Origin: a virus
Reading direction: 5' to 3' (one strand)
Virus record (IMG/VR): IMGVR_UViG_3300047476_001426
Coordinates: 32,001 to 96,000 of that record
DNA: 64,000 nucleotides
Shown here: positions 31,220 to 51,167 of the stretch, piece by piece
Numbering within the stretch: position 1 is the stretch's first letter
Layout of the letters: every line of letters starts with the position of its first letter
Program-made: the position numbers and the translations under genes
Notes under the pieces: generated by a model
Seen by the model: the letters and a program-made list of their open reading frames with translations, nothing else
Databases searched by the model: none
Told to the model about the DNA's origin: nothing

Positions 31220-32976
31220 AAATTTATCTTACTACCAACTAAGAAAAATGATAGAATTGGAAATTCAGGGTTTGTACTCATGTTCGCTTTATAGTTAACA
31301 TTTAACTTAAAACGCTTTGAGATTTGATAGTCAAAACCACTACCAATAAAACCACTCACATATCTATCAGTTATTGATACATTGTCTTTAGATGAATAAA
31401 CTAAGGGTGTTGAAATAACGTATAATTCGGGTGACACAATTAATTTTTTACCAACTTTAAATGGTCTTGTGTAAAAAGCGGTGATAGATGGTGAATAATA
31501 ACCATTCTTTTCTTCCGATATAATCGTTGCTGCTGCACTTACGTTAAAACCCGTAATACCATATTTCCCACCATTTAAAATACCACTATAACCAATAAAC
31601 CCTAAATAATTACCATAAGTGTAAACTCCTGTCAGGTTTATGTTATGAATGAACTTCAACTTTTTTGTTTTATTGTAATGTATTTTAGTATATTTTGTTG
31701 ACACAGCAAACTGTTTGAAATTTAACCAAACCATACCAGTTACACCATAACTTGATAAACCTGTCATTGACGATTTACTTGTTCCAATGTTTACTATTGG
31801 GGTGAAAGTTCTATTCAAATTTTGAGCGGAGGTAACATCAGAAGAAACAATGATAGGGTTAGACCTCGCACTACCCCCACCACCTGATTTACCTTTTCCA
31901 CCACTGTTTGAACCACCAGAACCACCGGCATTATTATCATTGTGAGCATCGTTGTTCATTTGTGTTGTTGCACCAACTTCTTCACCTTGTTGTTGGGTGT
32001 TGTTTTGATTATTATTTCCATTAGAGGTACCCGTTCCACCACTATTTGAGTTTCCTGAACCTCCGCTATTTCCTGTGGTAGTAGAACCTCCAGAACCCCC
32101 GTTATTACCTGAAGTTCCCGAACTTCCCGAACCATTATTTCCTGTGTTTGTTCCGTTGGTTGTTCCCGAACCACCTGTTGTGCTCGAACCATTTGAACCC
32201 CCGTTATTTGATGGAGACCCATTTCCGTTATTAGAACTACCTGTTGACCCTGAACCACCGTTGTTCGAACCAGAATTGTTTGATGGGGTTGACCCATTAG
32301 AGTTACCCGAACCTACAGATGGTTGAGTCGTTGAATTTCCCCCCTGAGTTGAGTTACCTGTACTTGATGACGTTCCTCCATTTGTTGAATTTCCACTTCC
32401 TTGAGTCGAGTTACTTCCTCCATTTGTTGAATTAGTTCCTGAATTCGATTGGGATTGTCCTCCATTTTGAGTTGTACTATTATTCGTAGTATTTGATTGA
32501 GATGAATTACTTCCATTTCCTTGATTATTATTGTTTTTCTTCTTATCAGAATTTTTATTATCCTTACCACCAGCATCACTACTACCCGAAGAACCAGTTT
32601 CTAAACTAGATGATTGTGCTTGACTACTTGACAATATCGAACTCACAACTGATTGAACCGTACTACCAATAATTTGTGCGGTTATTTGGTTTTGAGTTAC
32701 TTGACCCTGTTGTTGTGAACATGGGTTTGTTTGTCTGTATGTGGTATAAACCTGATTTACCCAATTGGAAAATGTTCCATTGGATAAATCGTTCGCGTCA
32801 AAACTACCAACATTATTTAAAAAAATAATCATCGTTTTACCCCCCTGTATTGGTACACTAAATATTGTGACTTCTTTTGTACAAGGGTCTATAAAAGTAT
32901 ACGTTGATACTTGTGCTTTCGATACATTATATACGAAAGTAAGAAAAAATGTTAATATTAATGTCTTAATGTTCAT
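31216..32976 (-). CDS. Secreted protein with G/S/N/T-rich linker and putative C-terminal beta-barrel
   Basis: Signal peptide; about 250-aa low-complexity linker; alternating-hydrophobic strands ending FFLVGSKINL. Confidence 0.6.
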   Translation of the reverse strand: MNIKTLILTFFLTFVYNVSKAQVSTYTFIDPCTKEVTIFSVPIQGGKTMIIFLNNVGSFDANDLSNGTFSNWVNQVYTTYRQTNPCSQQQGQVTQNQITAQIIGSTVQSVVSSILSSSQAQSSSLETGSSGSSDAGGKDNKNSDKKKNNNNQGNGSNSSQSNTTNNSTTQNGGQSQSNSGTNSTNGGSNSTQGSGNSTNGGTSSSTGNSTQGGNSTTQPSVGSGNSNGSTPSNNSGSNNGGSGSTGSSNNGNGSPSNNGGSNGSSTTGGSGTTNGTNTGNNGSGSSGTSGNNGGSGGSTTTGNSGGSGNSNSGGTGTSNGNNNQNNTQQQGEEVGATTQMNNDAHNDNNAGGSGGSNSGGKGKSGGGGSARSNPIIVSSDVTSAQNLNRTFTPIVNIGTSKSSMTGLSSYGVTGMVWLNFKQFAVSTKYTKIHYNKTKKLKFIHNINLTGVYTYGNYLGFIGYSGILNGGKYGITGFNVSAAATIISEEKNGYYSPSITAFYTRPFKVGKKLIVSPELYVISTPLVYSSKDNVSITDRYVSGFIGSGFDYQISKRFKLNVNYKANMSTNPEFPILSFFLVGSKINL

Positions 32977-34671: not shown

Positions 34672-36585
34672 TTAAACTTTTACAAATTGTTTAGTTAATT
34701 GTTTATTATAATTATGCAAAACCAAGTAATAATTACCGGCTGCGGATGATGTCATATCGATTTGTTTATATGCAATTTTCTCTGATGAATTGGTTGTAAC
34801 AGAACCGATGTTTTTCACCAATTGACCTCTTACATCATAAATTGAACCGTTCATTTCCATGTTTGGATTTGGGAATCTAATTTCAATTTCAAACCATCCA
34901 CTTGTTGGGTTTGGTCTTATTGATGCTGTAATCTCATCAATTGATTGGTCTGTAGGTGGTGCCATTTTATACATGATAACCGCAACACTACTAACCAAAT
35001 CAATATTTAAATGGTCACCCTTCTCATCTGATGCATCCATTAATTGTCTCACATAAATGTTACTTACAATATCATTACCACCAATTGGTGAGAATTTAAG
35101 TTTAAATGGTGTTGATTGACCTATTAAACCATCTTTCATCTGATTGTTCATCCCACCGAATCTAATTGTACCATTAGAAGCATCGTGAGTAACATATTGT
35201 AACCATGGACCACCATTAAAATTTGATATAATCTCCTCAAACTTAACTTTAGTTTTATCGTATTTCATTTCAAACTGTAAACCATAATTGTTATCACCAT
35301 TTGTGTTAACATTGAATGGTACATATAATGGTTGACTTCCTGATGCTGAAGTATTAGGTATTTCAACATCTAATTTACCTTTAAACACCGCCTTAGCAAC
35401 TAATACCCCCGATGAGTTCCATACTCTTGATGAATACGTTCTGTCTACGTCACCTTGAATAAAGTACTTAATGTTTACTGTTTTATTAACTAAACCAACA
35501 CTATCCGTGATAAAATTGGTTGCGGTTAAATGGTTTGGCCAATCATTCCATTGAGTTGAACCTAAAACTAAAGAATCATAAACACTCGCGTGGAAAGTTC
35601 TAATCATTGTTGTGGTATCTATCTTTTTCATACCACTTACGTTCGCGTAAATTAGATATGGGTCACCACCATCCAATTTTCCGTTTTGGTTCATATCACC
35701 AATAAGGTATGCCAAACCATTTTTTAAGTATTGTTGTCCAAATCCTTGGTTAACGTCTGTAATTGTGTATTCATCATATGTCTTTACAGCGTCTGATATT
35801 GTAACCGCGTAATCTCTGAAGACTTCCATACTATCTGCTGGAAATCTAACCAATAATTTATATTTGGTATTTTTATCTACATTGTTTAATGAGTAGTTAC
35901 CAGCGGTGTCACATAAAGAAGATGAAACAAATGTGCCTGTATTATACTTTGTACATATTACTGTTGGTCTTCTACCGGCCAATTTCATTGTTGGAGGTAA
36001 TTCAACAACACCACTAATCACCAAGTTACCCAAAAGTTCAAGGTGCATATCTTGTACATTTAAGATTGCGATGTTATCACCAATTGTAGAACCGTCATAC
36101 TTAAACATTCTTGCCCAGTTAATTTCAACACTGTCAGCATCAAAGTTTGATTCTACGTCATTAATAATAAATTTGTTATGTATTAAAAATGTGTCTTGTG
36201 TTATTTGAGAACCACTTGAAAGTACCAAGAAATTTCTTGCCACAGTATAGTTGGTATCACTTGTGTATGAATACAAACCTGTACCTGAACTGTAACTTGA
36301 ATATTTGTAATTGTTAAAGAATTTTATCGAAAGTGCTGGAGTCATGGTACTCACAGTTGGGTCAACAGTAGTTGATACGTGAGTAAAAAGTTGTTTCCTA
36401 TATTGGAAATCAACTTGGAATGTTCTCACATCAACCGCGGATGCTGGTGTGTATTTAAACACAACATCTAAAGTATCACCTCTTTTGATAGTTTTATACG
36501 CAACGGGGTTACCTATTTCAGGTGTTTGTGAAAACGCCATTGTCGTGACAAATAAAGTAATTAGGGATAAAATTATTTTTTTCAT
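34672..36585 (-). CDS. T9SS-type cargo protein with cohesin-like and dockerin-like domains
   Basis: Signal peptide; cohesin-like FQVDFQY and LQFEMKYD...GTIRFGG; GDMNQNGKLDGGD; C-terminal IRPNPTSG..IYDVRGQLV..IDM...GNYYL..KQFVK (T9SS type A CTD). Confidence 0.8.
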   Translation of the reverse strand: MKKIILSLITLFVTTMAFSQTPEIGNPVAYKTIKRGDTLDVVFKYTPASAVDVRTFQVDFQYRKQLFTHVSTTVDPTVSTMTPALSIKFFNNYKYSSYSSGTGLYSYTSDTNYTVARNFLVLSSGSQITQDTFLIHNKFIINDVESNFDADSVEINWARMFKYDGSTIGDNIAILNVQDMHLELLGNLVISGVVELPPTMKLAGRRPTVICTKYNTGTFVSSSLCDTAGNYSLNNVDKNTKYKLLVRFPADSMEVFRDYAVTISDAVKTYDEYTITDVNQGFGQQYLKNGLAYLIGDMNQNGKLDGGDPYLIYANVSGMKKIDTTTMIRTFHASVYDSLVLGSTQWNDWPNHLTATNFITDSVGLVNKTVNIKYFIQGDVDRTYSSRVWNSSGVLVAKAVFKGKLDVEIPNTSASGSQPLYVPFNVNTNGDNNYGLQFEMKYDKTKVKFEEIISNFNGGPWLQYVTHDASNGTIRFGGMNNQMKDGLIGQSTPFKLKFSPIGGNDIVSNIYVRQLMDASDEKGDHLNIDLVSSVAVIMYKMAPPTDQSIDEITASIRPNPTSGWFEIEIRFPNPNMEMNGSIYDVRGQLVKNIGSVTTNSSEKIAYKQIDMTSSAAGNYYLVLHNYNKQLTKQFVKV

Positions 36586-40800: not shown

Positions 40801-40999
40801 GAAACTTCCTTACAGAAGGTGATAATGCTTCACTGAAAGGACTACTGACTTCCAAGTGGGTCGCAACCACAATCGGAAGGTACGACACGGCTCAGTAGAC
40901 TCTGTAACGGACCCTGCTCTATGGTGCACACATAACAGGTGATGGGGAACAAACCATCGGTAAAATCTAAACCCACGGTGAGCGTGGAAGGAATGTTTC
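40801..40999 (+). ncRNA. Unclassified multibranch structured RNA
   Basis: End-to-end stem GAAAC.TTCCTT/AAGGAA.GTTTC; internal TTACAGA/TCTGTAA, CTACTGA/TCAGTAG and several hairpins. Confidence 0.55.
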
Positions 41000-41305: not shown

Positions 41306-41355
41306 CAAAGTCCGAGAGTAATTAACTCGGTACCTGAGAGGTTCGAAACTCTCGA

Positions 41356-41449
41356 TTGATTATGGTGTAATGGCGCACAGCAGAACGGAGTACGGGCATC
41401 GGCCTCGAAAGGGGACGCAGGATTAAGGTTCGAATCCTTATTAATCAGC
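41356..41449 (+). ncRNA. tRNA-like RNA with anticodon arm replaced
   Basis: Acceptor TTGATTA/TAATCAG, D arm GTGT/GCAC, T arm TAAGG-TTCGAAT-CCTTA; about 45-nt non-canonical middle. Confidence 0.6.
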
Positions 41450-41651
41450 AAGCCGTCTTTTTTCATACTCGCACCGATGAGGGGGACTGTTGAGACGTTA
41501 AAGTAACAGTGTAAAGCAATCGGGGGTTTATCCAAGTTACCCACAAACTGGGGTCGTTTTCCTTACCGAAGGAGTTTCCCGACCAATAAACTGAAACTCA
41601 AACGATAGAAAAAAGTAGGGACACATGGGGAAGCTTTAACCCGTCCCGAAA

Positions 41652-41750
41652 TAGTCAGGTGAGTTGGTACTCACGGAGGGTCGTTAAATGGAAAGATACC
41701 ACATCGACGAGGTGGTAAATGCCGAACAGGTTCGAGTCCTGTCCTGACTA
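41652..41750 (+). ncRNA. tRNA-like RNA, TAGTCAGG class, copy 1
   Basis: TAGTCAGG/CCTGACTA stem, GTGAG/CTCAC arm, ACAGG-TTCGAGT-CCTGT; no 7-nt anticodon loop. Confidence 0.6.
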
Positions 41751-41823
41751 CTAAGTAGAGAGAACCGTGAGTTTGCGGATGGAAACAACCATAAAACGAG
41801 CATACGTCATACTCTACTTAACA

Positions 41824-41918
41824 TAGTCAGGTTTGGTACAAGGTCGGTTCGAGTCCGATGGAAGGTCATGGATGTCGGGTAGCTCCCTGTAGAGAGGTTC
41901 GATTCCTCTCCTGACTAC
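41824..41918 (+). ncRNA. tRNA-like RNA, TAGTCAGG class, copy 2 (two T arms)
   Basis: Same terminal stem; TCGG-TTCGAGT-CCGA and AGAGG-TTCGATT-CCTCT. Confidence 0.6.
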
Positions 41919-41995
41919 GATACGGTGTTGACCTGTCCGCGACCGAAATGTATACAAAACAGTGGAGGGTGACAAATAGGGAGAGACCTGTACAT

Positions 41996-42136
41996 GATTA
42001 AGTGGCGAAATTGGTTTACGCGCTGGTCAGTACCCAAAAGAGTGTTGAATGGGGAAAACTGGTGGACATACTACAGACACGAGTAGTAGGAGATTATGTC
42101 TTTAAATCCGTACAGGTTCGAATCCTGTCTTAATCT
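41996..42136 (+). ncRNA. tRNA-like RNA with a long insertion in place of the anticodon arm
   Basis: GATTAAG/CTTAATC acceptor, Leu-type D arm GCGAAATTGGTTTACGC, ACAGG-TTCGAAT-CCTGT. Confidence 0.6.
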
Positions 42137-42263
42137 CGAATGTGGTTCGATTCCACTCGTTAACTGAGGTTTTGGAAAGTAGTCCAATGGAGGTACACAC
42201 TCCACTTAGAAATAAGGTAGAATGATGGAGAACAGTTTGGAGGTGTGGGAAGACACACAAAAT

Positions 42264-42335
42264 TCCTCGATAGCTCAGCGGTAGAGCAAACGGCTGTTAA
42301 CCGTTAGGTCCCAAGTTCGAATCTTGGTCGGGGAG
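42264..42335 (+). tRNA. tRNA-Asn(GTT)
   Basis: AACGG-CTGTTAA-CCGTT. Confidence 0.93.
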
Positions 42336-42411
42336 CAAAAAAATCGTTGATGGAAACATCGAAGGTGTACAATACTAGTAACACCGTAGGTTTGGCGATG
42401 TCCTACAATAG

Positions 42412-42492
42412 GCCTTGGTGGTGGAATGGTAGACACGCTAGTCTTAGGAACTAGTGGCGAAAGTCGTGTCGGTTCGAGTCCGACCTGAGGTA
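42412..42492 (+). tRNA. tRNA-Leu(TAG)
   Basis: CTAGT-CTTAGGA-ACTAG. Confidence 0.92.
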
Positions 42493-42497
42493 CAAAT

Positions 42498-42601
42498 TCA
42501 TTCTTAGTGTTATGAGGTAAAACACTTTGACTCTCACATCGCCTGGTTAGTACTGACCCGAATGTGAGACGAGTAAGTTGGTTCGAATCCAACAGAATGG
42601 A
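42498..42601 (+). ncRNA. tRNA-like RNA with an extended hairpin replacing the anticodon arm
   Basis: TCATTCT/AGAATGG acceptor, GTGTT/AACAC D arm, TCTCACAT/ATGTGAGA hairpin, GTTGG-TTCGAAT-CCAAC. Confidence 0.65.
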
Positions 42602-42663
42602 CAACCCGTCGAAAGCTCATGTTGGTCCGAGTGAGATGGAAACGCGGATATCGGACCCGTTAT

Positions 42664-45310: not shown

Positions 45311-45652
45311 ATGAGAAAAAACTAGATTAACAGACTTGTAGTCGTAACCCGTAAAGACTTAAAACCCGGGTACCAAATTGCACAATCGGGACATGCAATC
45401 TCTCAGTTCATTTTAGAACACCCCGAATTGTCGAAACGATGGAACAACAGTTATCTGATTTCATTATCCATCGATTCAGAAGAAAAATTACAACAATTAC
45501 TTTTTAGGTTAGAAGATTCAGGAATACCTGTATCTCATTTCATTGAACCCGATATCGGGAATCAATTAACATCTATTTGCTTTCTCGAAACCGAGGAAAC
45601 AAAAAGATTCACATCATCATTGCCTTTATCCTTAAAGGAATATAATAAATAA
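45311..45652 (+). CDS. Pth2-like peptidyl-tRNA hydrolase with in-frame TAG at codon 5
   Basis: MRKN*INRLVVVTRKDLKPGYQIAQSGHA...EPDIGNQLTSI; VVVTRKDL..G..IAQ..HA is the Pth2 N-terminal catalytic motif. Confidence 0.75.
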
Positions 45653-45672: not shown

Positions 45673-45927
45673 ATGAAGTAGATTAACAAAAAATGTGAAA
45701 TTATTTTTCACTTCAACAAGAAACACTTGGAAAATCCGACGATTCCAATGTGGGTTGTGAAATGTCGGGGCGACACTTATTATGTTCATCATGTTGATGT
45801 CTCACCGGGTGTGGGATTCTCAACAAAAGAAACTCCCGATAACCCTCATACCAAAGGGAGTATAAAATTCAAAGCAAATTTGGAAATTGAGGAAAACAAT
45901 AACATAATAACAGCTAAAATTTTTTAA
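45673..45927 (+). CDS. Hypothetical protein with in-frame TAG at codon 3
   Basis: MK*INKKCEIIFHFNKKHLENPTIPMWVVK...; A-rich leader before the ATG; frame continuous with ORF 45727-45927. Confidence 0.65.
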
Positions 45928-46385: not shown

Positions 46386-46457
46386 GGTCTCGTGGTGTAG
46401 CGGTAACATTACGGTCTCTAAAACCGATAGTCACGGGTTCAAATCCCGTCGGGACCA
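46386..46457 (+). tRNA. Amber suppressor tRNA (anticodon CTA)
   Basis: GGTCTCG/CGGGACC acceptor; CGGT-CTCTAAA-ACCG anticodon arm (CTA at 46418-46420); ACGGG-TTCAAAT-CCCGT. Confidence 0.88.
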
Positions 46458-46564
46458 CAACAAAAAAAAATATTTTTAAAAAAAATTACAAAAATACTTG
46501 TTTTTTAAAAAAAGTTTTGTATCTTTGTACCACAACAATAAATAATACATTTAATACGACATTT

Positions 46565-48637
46565 ATGACAACAAGAAATTTAGTTGCATTTCAAAAGAAT
46601 TTGGTGTGTTCACCAAACGACGGTCAAGATAACAGAATCGCTGTAGCAACCGTACAATCCCACCTAATGCAATGGGGTTACATGTTAGACGAAGACGCTT
46701 TCTTCGCATTAGCCAAATCAGATTTATCGTTTATTCAAAACTTCAATGATGAAGTGTTGAATCATTTGAAAAATGTAATGGGAGGTAAACGTAATTACCA
46801 ACCTTTATATAAAAACTTCCCACAAGAAGTGATGGTTATGTCCGACTTCGAATTGTACATGAATGCAATCATTCATTATTGGAGTAACGGTCAATGGGAA
46901 CCATCTACCCATACTTACGAAAAAGAAATCAAGTTTGAGAAAATCAAATACAACTTGATTAAGTATGGTACTTCGGAAAGATTCTCAAAAATCTTCACTG
47001 ACTTAGTGTCAATAAACACATCGTTAACTCCTCAAGACCTTGAGATTGTTAAATGGTTTGTTGAGAGCGGTGAAACATTAGTCTTCCCTGACACAATTCC
47101 ATTCAAAGAGAATTTGTGTACATTGGCGGCAATGGGAATCTCGGGATTACCAGTTAAGACTTCAACCGATGTGTTAAGAATCGCCGTTCATCTTTCAGGT
47201 GGTGATATTAGTTTACCAAAAGTTCCTCAAAAGGAAATTAGGGCAAGTGTATGGACCACCCAAAGGATTACGAATCCTGAAAGAGAAAAGTTTAAATTCA
47301 AGAAATTCTCTCGTAAAGAGAGAAAATACATCTTGGGTTTACTGGAGAACACAAACTGTGACCCACGTGAAATGGTTTTAAGAGACCAACGTTGGGTACG
47401 TTTAGGTGAAATATTACACCCGGGTGAATATAAAAACCAATTCCCTAAGTCTTTCGAGGCCTTCAACAAAATCCGAAACGAGAAAGTTAAATCTTGGTTC
47501 GCACTTGTTAACGAAGGTTTCAATAAAGGATTAGAGAATGGTTTGAGAGTTTTGTCTCAAAGACCTGGTGAGTTCTCTCGTAGAATGGATTGGTTGGTTC
47601 GTACATATCCAAAAGATATTGAACTGATTATGAAGTTCTTCGGAGAAGCGGTAAAAGGTACATCAAACAAAGTATTGTTTGAAGTTTACACTCACTTTGA
47701 AAATCGTACTGAACCTATGGATAATAGGTCTATTATGATAAAAGGGGCGAGAAAACGTACCACATTACCATCACTACCAGCAATCCCTAAAGAGATTGTG
47801 GAAACCATCCACTCTAAATTATTCGAAACACTTAGAGATAAGTTTTCGGTAATGGAATCTTTAGGTAACTGTTGGATTGATGAGGAATTGAAAAAAATTC
47901 CTTTACCAACCAACATGAGAAGTATGAACTTCTCAACTAAACCAACAATCAGAGGTCAAAGAGTTCCACTCGATAACCCTGATGCAAAAGTTATCAGACC
48001 GTTTGTTCATTGGATGGATAAACGTGGTAGCGAAGACTTGGATTTAAGTGTTACGTTTGTTGGTGAAAAGGTGTCAGAAGTACTATCTTTCAGTAACTTG
48101 AGAGTTGGTAAATCTTGTCACTCAGGGGATGTGAGACATAGACAGGGTCCTTGTGCCGAGTACATCGACATTGATATTCAAGATGCATTGAAAAGAGGAT
48201 TCAAATATGCAGTCATTGATGTGAGAAACTTCAATGGAGGTACTTTGAGTTCACTTGAAACGTCTTTTGGTATCATGGAACGAGAACACCCTGAATCAAA
48301 CAAAACATGGTTACCTGAAACAATTTCAAATTGTCAATCATTGGAATCAGCGTCGTCAAACACATTGATTTCTATTATTGACCTTGAAACTAAGGAGTAC
48401 ATCATGTTGGATATTGATTCATCAGGTTTCGTTACCGCAAGAGGTGACTTCAAACACACTCTTAAAGTGATTCAACAATACGCTGAATTACCAAAAGTAA
48501 GTGTTTATGACCTTATTCTTCTACACGTAGAAGGTCGAGGAAAACAAGTTACCCTTGATGAAAATGTCGACGTACACTTCAAGTACGAGGACTTCTGTTA
48601 CTCTTATGAGGAAACAGGAAAATTAATGGGTGTGTAA
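46565..48637 (+). CDS. Large alpha-helical protein with C-terminal TerD-like domain (Ro/TROVE-like candidate)
   Basis: ATG at 46565 after a TATCTTTG promoter (46520); EDLDLSV..HSGDV..AEYIDID TerD-type motifs; N-terminal helical region unassigned. Confidence 0.6.
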   Translation: MTTRNLVAFQKNLVCSPNDGQDNRIAVATVQSHLMQWGYMLDEDAFFALAKSDLSFIQNFNDEVLNHLKNVMGGKRNYQPLYKNFPQEVMVMSDFELYMNAIIHYWSNGQWEPSTHTYEKEIKFEKIKYNLIKYGTSERFSKIFTDLVSINTSLTPQDLEIVKWFVESGETLVFPDTIPFKENLCTLAAMGISGLPVKTSTDVLRIAVHLSGGDISLPKVPQKEIRASVWTTQRITNPEREKFKFKKFSRKERKYILGLLENTNCDPREMVLRDQRWVRLGEILHPGEYKNQFPKSFEAFNKIRNEKVKSWFALVNEGFNKGLENGLRVLSQRPGEFSRRMDWLVRTYPKDIELIMKFFGEAVKGTSNKVLFEVYTHFENRTEPMDNRSIMIKGARKRTTLPSLPAIPKEIVETIHSKLFETLRDKFSVMESLGNCWIDEELKKIPLPTNMRSMNFSTKPTIRGQRVPLDNPDAKVIRPFVHWMDKRGSEDLDLSVTFVGEKVSEVLSFSNLRVGKSCHSGDVRHRQGPCAEYIDIDIQDALKRGFKYAVIDVRNFNGGTLSSLETSFGIMEREHPESNKTWLPETISNCQSLESASSNTLISIIDLETKEYIMLDIDSSGFVTARGDFKHTLKVIQQYAELPKVSVYDLILLHVEGRGKQVTLDENVDVHFKYEDFCYSYEETGKLMGV

Positions 48638-48744
48638 TATCACCCACTAAGTTCTTTGAAATTTTGTAATAGGGGTTAATCAGGCGTAAATGGTTAACAT
48701 AAAAATGTAGTGAAGCTCGTTCCCTTCCTTACTAAAAAATATTA

Positions 48745-49257
48745 TATGTGGCTATGTGAGTCACTGAGAGGATAACGTTTACCTACTATAGAAATCACGG
48801 AGTGGTACTATTTTAGGTCTTAGAGAAGGTGAAAGTATCGGTGCAAACGTCTTACTTCTAACATACAACTATCAGATACAACGTTAGACACACAATCTCC
48901 ACATAACTTCTTAGACGGCTATGTATTGGGTTACTTCTATAAAATACAATTGGATGTAAAACCACCCGTACTCTTTCCGTCAACCATTTTAATGGCTACG
49001 TATTCAGTTACTTCTATCTTTGACTTCAACTCAAAACCGATTACTGATACATTTTCCATTTACTTTAGTTCTTTGATAAAAACATTGATGGCTATTGACC
49101 TTGTTACTTCTAGCTGGTTAACTCAGGTTCGATTCCTGAATTATCCTCGAAAGAGGGTGATTTATTACAAGTCATATTTCCATCTAACTTCTTTACCGGC
49201 TATGAGTGTAGTTACTTCTATCCTTTATTATACGATTTTACTCATTCAATTTCTGGT
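48745..49257 (+). ncRNA. Array of five Y-RNA-like RNAs sharing a GGCTAY...GTTACTTCT module
   Basis: Units 48745-48905, 48914-48981, 48991-49060, 49087-49184, 49195-49257, each closed by its own terminal stem. Confidence 0.75.
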
Positions 49258-49265
49258 TTTTATAT

Positions 49266-49389
49266 GAGGGGTGTAGCTCAGTTGGTAGAGCACGTATTAC
49301 TGGTTTAATTTCTGTTAATACGGCTATAAGCTAAGTTACTTCTTAGGCTGTTAACCTCGTGGTCGTAGGTTCGAATCCTACCACCCCTC
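49266..49389 (+). ncRNA. tRNA-Asn(GTT)-like RNA with the array module inserted in the anticodon stem
   Basis: AGGGGTG/CACCCCT acceptor, canonical D and T arms, CG[50 nt]AGG-CTGTTAA-CCTCG. Confidence 0.75.
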
Positions 49390-49450
49390 CTAATTGTTTC
49401 ATGTGAAACAATGATAAACAACAAATTAACAACATTTTAAAACAACAAAA

Positions 49451-50023: not shown

Positions 50024-50743
50024 ATGAGAATAGTTTGTATATCCGATACCCACTCTTTACATCCGTATATGTCACACGACATACCGAATGGTGATATATT
50101 AATACATTCTGGTGATTGTACAAATATTGGTGAAGAAAATGATGTTCGCGAGTTTATTACTTGGTTCCAAAATATTCGGGGATTTAGTCATAAAATTTTT
50201 ATTGCAGGAAATCATGATTTTGCATTTGAAAGAGAACCTTCATGGTTGAATCTTTATACCGACCCAAATATTTTAACAGAACACAATGTGACATATTTGG
50301 AAGATAGTGAATTAGAGATTGTGAGTTCTGAATTTTCAAGACCAATAAAAATATACGGTAGTCCGTGGCAACCCGAATTTTACGATTGGGCTTTTAACTT
50401 ACCGAGAAATGGTGAAGTTTTGGCATCAAGATGGGCGGATATACCTGATAATACGGATATTTTAATTACCCATGGACCTCCACACGGTATTAGAGACTTT
50501 ACTCCCACAAATTTACAAGTAGGATGTGAATTACTAAGAAGTAGAGTTTTTGAAATAAGACCGTTATTACATGTTTTTGGACATATACACGGTGCTTATG
50601 GTGGTGTTGAGGTAGATGGTATTACTTTTGCAAATGCATCAATTTGTACTGAAAGATATAAACCAACAAATAAACCATTAGTTTTTGATTTAACAGAAAA
50701 TAATGGTAATTTTACAATTACATACGTAGACGAAGAAAATTAA
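50024..50743 (+). CDS. Calcineurin-like metallophosphoesterase (MPPED-like)
   Basis: ISDTH, HSGD, AGNHD, THGPP, FGHIH motifs. Confidence 0.88.
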   Translation: MRIVCISDTHSLHPYMSHDIPNGDILIHSGDCTNIGEENDVREFITWFQNIRGFSHKIFIAGNHDFAFEREPSWLNLYTDPNILTEHNVTYLEDSELEIVSSEFSRPIKIYGSPWQPEFYDWAFNLPRNGEVLASRWADIPDNTDILITHGPPHGIRDFTPTNLQVGCELLRSRVFEIRPLLHVFGHIHGAYGGVEVDGITFANASICTERYKPTNKPLVFDLTENNGNFTITYVDEEN

Positions 50744-50770: not shown

Positions 50771-51167
50771 GGGGGTGTATGGAATCGATTGGCATTGATA
50801 TCCTAAATGGGCACGTAGTCGGACTTCATCTACGACTTAAATCTACGGTGGAAAAATTCAAACGGCAACGTTTACAACAACATGGAAGTAGCAGGTCTTC
50901 TTGCAACTTCTAAAGTTGCTGCCTAATCGGCAGTAACTAACGGGTCGGTGGACACATAACCTTGGAACAGAAGTCCTTACAGTGTAATACCACTTAGAGT
51001 GTTAGGAGAATGGCCTGACTGTCTCTTTAAATTATAGTCAGGAACAGGTTTGTTGTTTTTCTGTGTATGAAATCAAATATTTGTTGGTTGTGAATAACCA
51101 AATAAACGTGTAGTCCATTTATGGTATGATGAGCAAGACGCGGGTTCGAAACCCGCCACCTCCACCA
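50771..51167 (+). ncRNA. ssrA: tmRNA
   Basis: GGGGGTG/CACCTCC-A-CCA acceptor with G3:U70, T arm GCGGG-TTCGAAA-CCCGC, tag ORF 50864-50926 GNVYNNMEVAGLLATSKVAA*. Confidence 0.92.

Follow-up and report, generated by a model that had tools for sequence, protein, structure and literature searches.

A tRNA chimera beside a helical-repeat/TerD gene in a freshwater giant phage: probably a tRNA-mimicking partner RNA

The region analyzed here (the window) is a stretch of 64,000 nucleotides (nt) of the IMG/VR virus record IMGVR_UViG_3300047476_001426, covering positions 32,001 to 96,000 of that record. It includes a gene for a 690-amino-acid (aa) helical-repeat/TerD protein, five free-standing units of a structured RNA module located 3′ of this open reading frame (ORF), and, after all five units, a chimera that combines a tRNA body with a permuted copy of the module (Table 1). 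Direct reading of the sequence revealed a cloverleaf with a GUU anticodon hairpin at 49267-49389. The 7-base-pair (bp) acceptor stem, AGGGGTG (49267-73) paired with CACCCCT (49382-88), is followed on its 5′ side by U8 and A9, a D arm of GCTC-AGTTGGTA-GAGC (49276-91), A26, and the first two nucleotides of the anticodon stem, CG at nt 27-28 (49293-94). Between nt 28 and 29 the anticodon stem is interrupted by a 50-nt insert (49295-49344), such that there is no continuous 5-bp stem, and 3′ of the insert are AGG (49345-47), the loop CTGTTAA (49348-54), and CCTCG (49355-59), followed by the variable loop TGGTC and the T arm GTAGG-TTCGAAT-CCTAC (49365-81). The elbow nucleotides U8, A14, G15, G18 G19, and C48 and the TTCGAAT T loop are kept, together with a short variable loop, and G-1 (49266) is able to pair with the C at position 73 (49389). 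The insert reads TATT, ACTGGTTT, AATTT, CTGT, TAAT, ACGG, CTAT, AAGCTAAGT, TACTTCT, and T, placing the module 3′ strand before a 4-nt TAAT cap and the module 5′ strand, which is a circular permutation of the order in the array, and the junction linkers TATT and TACTTCTT flank its 8-bp bulged helix. The split anticodon stem, permuted module, and intact GUU loop that a preliminary description had proposed for this element were confirmed base for base. Immediately 3′ of the chimera is a hairpin (Table 1); relatives carry a hairpin of other sequence at the same spot, followed by TATAAAC or TAATAAAC, and this element may be a processing site or a terminator that lacks a U-tract.

The chimera was not called as a tRNA by default ARAGORN and scored 16.7 bits with the Rfam tRNA model (RF00005) against a gathering threshold of 29. 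With introns permitted, ARAGORN made a call at 49267-49390 labeled Ser(act), and in silico deletion of the insert led default ARAGORN to call tRNA-Asn(GTT). Default ARAGORN also placed a normal tRNA-Asn at 42264-42336, in agreement with the preliminary description, within a nearly complete tRNA set upstream of the chimera, which is therefore not needed for decoding. Asparagine identity in Escherichia coli is set by GUU plus G73. This set was not matched in the window, which has C73, and relatives bearing GUU have G, A, or C at this position. The G-1:C73 combination had also been described as His-like; it is present in the window, but the -1/73 combinations vary among relatives, with G, A, C, or T at nt 73, and it was rejected as an identity signal.

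The frame of the module consists of stem 1 (ending in GG), CTAY, stem 2 (9 nt versus 8 nt, with one bulge), TACTTCT, a variable apical part, and on the 3′ side stem 2′, WWTTT, and stem 1′ (starting with CC). In the window and 23 related loci, nearly every module unit formed 12-13 of the 13 pairs with differing stem sequences, and array unit 3 of the window constitutes a partial tRNA-like domain in normal module order. The signature GGCTAY-N9-TACTTCT was present five times in the window, all within 48917-49343 (0.12 expected by chance; 0/100 shuffles reached five), with no occurrence elsewhere in the 136-kb record. A 14-base module pattern gave mostly single matches in viral contigs that were probably due to chance, and multi-match loci alone were used. 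Neither the module nor the chimera matched any Rfam 15 family by gathering or E-value threshold, whether in the window or in relatives, sub-threshold matches to the tRNA and YrlA core excepted. The module is an independent RNA unit. In the free-standing units its 5′ strand pairs with a downstream strand and in every tRNA chimera with an upstream strand, the chimeras of relatives forming 10-13 of the 13 module pairs in permuted orientation. The opposite pairing directions demonstrate that the permutation is real and support the module fold, an argument that the preliminary description had already drawn from the window.

A search with the putative partner protein retrieved 24 viral loci (67-98% identity), in which the number of array units varied and the chimera was found in some and was missing from others. 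A pattern composed of RNA letters only (D-arm 3′ half, gap, and module 5′ strand, with no protein sequence in it) matched 14 viral and 31 metagenomic stretches and gave approximately 25 distinct genuine chimeras. The type 1 layout, as in the window, has an insert of 49-53 nt that follows nt 28 or 29 and splits the anticodon stem on its 5′ strand, and an intact small hairpin with a canonical 7-nt loop carrying GUU (Asn), GUA (Tyr), UAU (Ile), UUU (Lys), GUC (Asp, CTGTCAC), or UUC (Glu, CTTTCAC). In type 2, a 5-bp anticodon stem closes the entire module and the 7 nt ahead of the 3′ strand are usually anticodon-loop-like (U33, purine 37), displaying GAA, UUG, UGC, UCC, GUA, and others, although with ambiguous boundaries these anticodon assignments are tentative.

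Covariation was evaluated in 13 type-1 sequences aligned over the cloverleaf and the module (alignment A3; 33 pairs). Paired cells amounted to 93.7% and compensatory double changes were present at 19/33 pairs, including six of seven in the acceptor stem, four of five in the T arm, all three of the anticodon hairpin, and five of eight in module stem 2. These values were reached by 0/500 shuffles, and slid controls were 34-49% paired. U33 and A37 were invariant in this set while nt 34-36 were variable. The D arm was constant, GCTCAG(T)(T)GGTAGAGC, whichever anticodon was carried, and the Asp, Glu, and Tyr tRNAs of the phage itself have isoacceptor-specific bodies unlike the chimera scaffold. A one-base bulge in the T stem was identified in several relatives. 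Loci L007 and L008, both with 90% protein identity to the window, have near-identical arrays but differ in their chimeras and acceptor stems, the former being type 1 with GUU and the latter type 2 with a GAA-like loop, and the sole difference between the close relatives L166 and L171 is at nt 34 (GUC versus UUC). These comparisons suggest cassette-like exchange plus point switching of anticodons. The chimera is a conserved RNA family under selection and not a product of decay. The random loss of tRNA arms in relatives that the preliminary description had considered as the contrary outcome was clearly not seen in the covarying type-1 set, and the other anticodons it had proposed to look for on the same scaffold were found (Tyr, Ile, Lys, Asp, and Glu, besides Asn).

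The protein gene was on the same strand in 16/16 chimera loci with approximately 1 kb or more of upstream sequence, at a distance of 449-832 nt from gene end to chimera in the 15 loci where this was computable, and the eight chimera loci lacking a protein match had upstream flanks of ≤939 nt. Modules also flank more distant homologues (45, 37, 42, and 31% identity), on either side of the gene. These include L138 (45%) with modules plus a chimera, L139 (37%) with three module units upstream of the gene, L143 (31%) with three units carrying TCCTTCT that adjoin Thg1 and metallophosphatase genes, and Bacteroidaceae and Barnesiella genomes (42%) in which the gene is followed by one module with a T-run and then by a gene with a class Ib aminoacyl-tRNA synthetase domain (PF00579) that, in the Bacteroidaceae, looks like TrpRS by sequence. 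Homologues with approximately 23-27% identity are encoded by three cultured phages, XacN1 (Xanthomonas), Weasels2 (Rhodococcus), and RcXuper (Rhodobacter). The gene is annotated there as a "hypothetical protein," and modules with the UNCUUCU hallmark occupy the unannotated gaps next to it; nucleotidyltransferase genes are neighbors in XacN1 and RcXuper, as are tRNA genes in RcXuper and Weasels2. The latter two phages each have one normally ordered module wrapped around a series of an anticodon-like hairpin, a variable loop, a T arm, an acceptor hairpin of 7-8 bp that is closed, and a D arm; the anticodon stem of Weasels2 is split after nt 29 and has the loop CTCTTAA. The three-way junction is the same as that of the window, with the chain ends at the module instead of the acceptor stem. 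The Rfam YrlA model aligned with the tRNA-like core only of the Weasels2 and RcXuper RNAs (40.7 and 26.4 bits against a threshold of 69). The tRNA body and module form one architecture, present in both circular permutations beside one protein family, and the linkage of these RNAs with that family is strict in phages and bacteria. The earlier proposal of a tRNA mimic tied to a protein fits this synteny.

Further genes recur near the protein-RNA pair. Calcineurin-type metallophosphatases were found in the window (50024-50743), L142 (4309-5007), and L143, the last also encoding a Thg1-like gene (neighbor span 390-1872), and other recurrent neighbors from the nucleotidyltransferase, class Ib synthetase, and tRNA gene set were located at 140-1003 in L196, 4958-5947 in L198, and from approximately 3790 onward in L186. 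The neighboring genes hint at a tRNA end-processing or repair context.

The 690-aa protein had no Pfam match, and its PHROGs match (phrog_33734) is of unknown function. Its AlphaFold2 (AF2) model had a mean confidence (pLDDT) of 91, and fold searches identified the TerD fold with 2qz7_B (Z 13.1, root-mean-square deviation (rmsd) 2.5, 150 of 169 residues) and 2kxt (Z 11.6), as did Foldseek (E 1e-4 to 1e-3, probability 1.0). With the Pfam TerD model (PF02342), only one of 50 family members reached even E 0.002 and all were below the Pfam thresholds. The family comprises 2417 clusters at 50% identity, and its alignment displayed invariant acidic/SGD positions at D491, D493, S520, G521, D522, and E532. 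Ro60 appeared in the whole-model fold search through long, weak alignments (1yvp_A, Z 5.8, rmsd 4.9, 300 residues; 9l5y_B, Z 5.8, rmsd 6.3, 286 residues). The N-terminal part folded alone (pLDDT 80) gave generic helical-repeat matches only, with Ro60 not in the top 50, and an hhalign comparison with TROVE gave a probability of 0.2%, a weak test as the profile was thin (two sequences). Pfam, PHROGs, and PDB sequence searches yielded nothing useful for Ro60 homology. With negative sequence tests and a C-terminal TerD rather than vWA domain, the protein was not assigned to the TROVE/Ro60 family. A TROVE gene was absent from the complete genomes of XacN1, Weasels2, and RcXuper, and the 136-kb record, a fragment with an estimated completeness of 41%, likewise gave no TROVE match.

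By analogy with Ro60 and its Y RNAs, the chimera seems rather more probably than otherwise to be a non-decoding tRNA mimic that docks the neighboring protein, its putative partner. It would be a stable, tRNA-shaped small RNA belonging to the RNA family encoded beside the 690-aa helical-repeat/TerD gene, and its acceptor, D, and T arms, elbow nucleotides, and authentic anticodon hairpin would allow an L-shaped fold. As the acceptor ends are free in the window form, RNase P and RNase Z could, and probably do, release it from the array transcript, and CCA addition to the free ends would be possible. The 50-nt module would project from the anticodon stem at the three-way junction as a putative docking site for the protein. 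The chimera may then link this protein to whatever recognizes a tRNA with that anticodon loop, as YrlA-type Y RNAs join Ro60 to tRNA-binding partners, candidate downstream partners being an anticodon nuclease, a synthetase, or a modification or repair enzyme. The conserved yet switchable anticodon loop could be the specificity element of such a particle. A Y-RNA-like particle appears to be the most economical mechanism; we infer protein binding, processing, and retention of the insert. The preliminary description is supported in part, as regards anatomy, permutation, anticodon variety, and protein linkage; the bait or adaptor role it suggested would be a candidate function, and a His-like significance of G-1:C73 was not supported.

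Several observations weigh against this interpretation. The closest relatives, L001-L006 (92-98% protein identity), have no chimera, which is thus dispensable. The discriminator partly fits the anticodon, with G73 accompanying Asp and Glu, A73 Lys and Ile, and U73 Gly, and removal of the insert gave a canonical tRNA by default ARAGORN in 24/25 sequences, as an intron would predict. The 690-aa protein has no demonstrated RNA-binding domain, its helical part matching generic repeat proteins only. With regard to the exact junction fold, a competing hairpin CGTATTA/TAATACG that is favored by RNAfold and conserved clashes with module stem 1; it displayed almost no covariation and is a possible alternative conformer.

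Some of these observations bear on the rival explanations. A true tRNA-Asn gene with a new, short, protein-dependent intron, from which the module is removed, perhaps aided by the neighboring protein, to give a working tRNA, would account for the discriminator bases that fit their anticodons and for the perfect 5-bp stem, 7-nt loop, U33, and A37 that in silico removal restores in all type-1 sequences, which default ARAGORN then calls as tRNAs. The type-2 insert also lies in or near the anticodon loop, and the single type-2 locus compared with Rfam, L138, scored as a complete tRNA that contains an insertion (58.1 bits). However, 50 nt is far below the size of a group I core, no Rfam intron or ribozyme matched, and direct reading gave no bulge-helix-bulge at the junctions. 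The insertion point is within a stem (28/29 or 29/30) and the 3′ boundary ranges from -2 to +7 nt relative to TACTTCT, a misfit with a ruler-type endonuclease. The same module is free-standing without a tRNA, including in bacteria, and the same junction occurs with the permuted tRNA part of Weasels2 and RcXuper, where the acceptor stem is closed and module removal cannot give a tRNA. In addition, Tyr, Glu, and Asp loops are carried on a class-I Asn-like body without the body features of those tRNAs, the T stem is bulged in several relatives, and a normal tRNA-Asn is already encoded. Such an intron is consequently regarded as quite improbable.

The bulged T stems, the absence of the chimera from the closest relatives, and the un-Asn-like C73 might instead indicate a tRNA-Asn pseudogene hit by a mobile repeat from the adjoining array and now decaying. 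Compensatory changes nevertheless keep the helices across lineages whose partner protein differs by up to approximately 55%, the position within the locus and the orientation and junction of the insert are constant, and the anticodon loops stay canonical; given the covariation, the pseudogene explanation is close to refuted and its likelihood is very small. The tRNA body might also be a mere scaffold for biogenesis and stability, such that the module RNA is freed and protected through RNase P and RNase Z and the likeness to a tRNA serves no separate purpose. In the array the chimera comes last and has no evident promoter of its own, its 3′ trailer (N73 then CAA or CTA) is like that of the normal tRNAs of the phage, and the anticodon loop of type-2 relatives has simply given way to the module, a design also used in engineered tRNA scaffolds. 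A scaffold would have no reason to keep an anticodon hairpin, yet all three of its pairs are compensated, U33 and A37 do not vary, and nt 34-36 switch among canonical anticodons. Free-standing units also lack a tRNA body, and the Weasels2 and RcXuper forms, with their closed acceptor stem, are not conventional RNase P/Z substrates. This explanation is therefore held to be unlikely. The chimera of this freshwater giant phage is probably a tRNA-mimicking partner RNA, neither a working nor a broken tRNA.

An extension of the partner-RNA interpretation, doubtful at present, is that the chimeras are specificity cassettes of an undescribed ribonucleoprotein, in which a tRNA body that stays constant displays authentic loops (Asn, Tyr, Asp, Glu, Lys, Ile, and others) and is tethered to the helical-repeat/TerD protein. 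Such a particle might capture, sense, or neutralize loop-reading factors such as host anticodon nucleases, and the rapid swapping of anticodons and whole chimeras between near-identical phages might be the trace of an arms race. The Asn, Tyr, Asp, Lys, and Glu tRNAs belong to classes known as anticodon-nuclease targets. The suggestion of a bait for these enzymes is compatible with that anticodon spectrum and with the rapid turnover among close relatives, as judged from sequence.

No description of TerD with a non-coding RNA (ncRNA) or tRNA-like RNA, nor of phage tRNA insertions of this kind, was found in the full-text literature. If the partner-RNA interpretation is true, Ro60/Y RNA would no longer be the sole system pairing a protein with tRNA-mimicking small RNAs, and a second, apparently unrelated family would span 2417 clusters, Bacteroidota genomes, and large phages of several phyla. 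Mimics of tRNA would then exist in both circular permutations of one fold, and the window form, whose acceptor ends are free and whose anticodon hairpin is genuine, could in principle undergo processing, CCA addition, charging, or cleavage like a tRNA. The different anticodons on one scaffold give a testable hypothesis, that the particle owes its specificity to the anticodon loop, which bears on why large phages carry many tRNA-like genes and how they cope with tRNA-targeting defenses. In practical terms, default tRNA finders miss such genes or an intron-bearing tRNA of the wrong identity is called, as in the Ser(act) label above.

Table 1. Coordinates of the protein gene, module array, chimera, and other tRNA-like elements in the window.
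Feature	Position	Strand	Basis
690-aa putative partner gene: helical repeats ~1-460, TerD-fold beta-sandwich 473-639, C-terminal helices	46565..48637	+	AF2 model, fold searches
Array unit 0: module, ~120-nt apical domain, stem TGTGG/CCACA, internal loops CTAT/AATCT	48747..48903	+	Direct reading
Array unit 1: free-standing module hairpin, normal strand order	48914..48981	+	13/13 module pairs
Array unit 2: free-standing module hairpin	48991..49060	+	13/13 pairs
Array unit 3: apical T-arm look-alike (TCAGG-TTCGATT-CCTGA) and GAAA-capped hairpin	49087..49184	+	13/13 pairs; T-arm repeat families
Array unit 4: free-standing module hairpin	49195..49257	+	13/13 pairs
Chimera: tRNA-ordered cloverleaf (G-1, acceptor, D arm, split anticodon stem, CTGTTAA loop, T arm, C73) plus module	49266..49389	+	Direct reading, ARAGORN, covariation in 13 relatives
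Permuted module insert: linker TATT; stem-2 3′ strand (49299-306); AATTT (49307-11)	49295..49344	+	12/13 pairs, permuted orientation
Permuted module insert, continued: stem-1 CTGT/ACGG with TAAT cap; CTAT; stem-2 5′ strand	49312-23; 49324-27; 49328-36	+	
Permuted module insert, 3′ end: TACTTCT; T	49337-43; 49344	+	
Retained anticodon hairpin AGG-CTGTTAA-CCT, plus CG pairing with 49293-94	49345..49359	+	Compensatory changes at 3/3 pairs
Hairpin TTGTTTCA-TG-TGAAACAA immediately 3′ of the chimera	49394..49411	+	Direct reading
tRNA-like elements	41653-41751, 41825-41918, 41996-42137, 42498-42602		Relaxed or intron-permitting ARAGORN

Other RNA features were identified in the window. A gene-free region at 41320-42650 contains several T-arm look-alikes and the long tRNA-like elements of Table 1, seen by relaxed or intron-permitting ARAGORN only. 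The window signature scan found the TACTTCT module in none of these elements, which may be further tRNA-like ncRNAs of another kind. A freshwater-1 RNA is situated within the tRNA cluster (40903-40965; 72.5 bits) and a transfer-messenger RNA (tmRNA) at 50771-51167 (98 bits), 1.4 kb downstream of the chimera; the homologous locus of RcXuper has a permuted tmRNA beside the modules. Upstream of the protein gene, two small adjacent genes at 45311-45652 and 45673-45927 both start with ATG...TAG ATT AAC, the in-frame TAG falling at codons 5 and 3. When the first is read through, its Pfam PTH2 match begins at residue 9, ahead of the first table-11 start. At 46386-46458, approximately 700 nt downstream, lies a suppressor-type tRNA(CTA). 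General TAG recoding of the phage was rejected, the window being densely coded with long ORFs under table 11, and the pair may be a few suppressor-dependent genes rather than a sign of a recoded genome. The ORF at 34675-36585 (-) has a Por_Secre_tail domain for type IX secretion system (T9SS) sorting, which together with the TAnnTTTG-type promoter repeats (family D8) of the window points to a Bacteroidota host.

Among known systems, archaeal non-canonical and bacterial group I tRNA introns resemble the chimera in their insertion into the anticodon arm, the removal of which would restore a canonical cloverleaf, and archaeal tRNA introns can also sit inside stems. They differ in that the chimera has no bulge-helix-bulge or group I core and its insert is a covarying module that is also free-standing and oppositely permuted. 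One-piece and two-piece (circularly permuted) tmRNAs are likewise tRNA-like RNAs whose anticodon arm has made way for a different functional domain served by a dedicated protein, and both strand orders are found in nature. The chimera lacks an mRNA-like reading frame, pseudoknots, and a tmRNA-model match, and in contrast to tmRNA it retains a D arm and an anticodon loop. The tRNAs with which phages counter host defenses directed at tRNA are functional decoding tRNAs replacing cleaved host tRNAs (PMC10264068; PMC11464382; PMC11555353). The chimera shares with them a phage-encoded tRNA shape with the anticodon loop as the feature that counts, but it has a bulky arm in its anticodon stem and a linked protein gene and very likely cannot decode. 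Residues 473-639 of the neighboring protein take the TerD beta-sandwich of known TerD proteins (PDB 2qz7, 3ibz, and 2kxt; Z 13.1 and 11.6), here fused to a 460-residue helical-repeat domain and encoded beside structured RNAs instead of in a ter operon.

The system to which the locus has been likened above is that of the YrlA-type Y RNAs with Ro60/Rsr (Rfam RF02553; Chen et al., 2014, PMC4201824; bioRxiv 10.1101/312249). The differences are that the window chimera follows the normal tRNA order, leaves its acceptor ends free, and carries a real anticodon hairpin, and that the neighboring protein has TerD where Ro60 has vWA and is not detectably TROVE. Ro60 binds a GNCGAAN0-1G motif on the 5′ strand of Y RNA (PMC4201824), which is absent from the module, the handle here being GG-CUAY ... 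UACUUCU ... WWUUU-CC, and the YrlA model (RF02553) gave no match in 48600-49450 at E values up to 10. The likenesses lie in the arrangement. In both systems one or more small RNA genes adjoin the gene of the partner protein, a tRNA-like domain that includes D and T arms is part of at least one of the RNAs, a conserved stem with a bulge is the presumed protein handle, and occurrence extends over bacteria and phages. The strand order of the Weasels2 and RcXuper RNAs (T arm, closed acceptor, and D arm) is that of YrlA.

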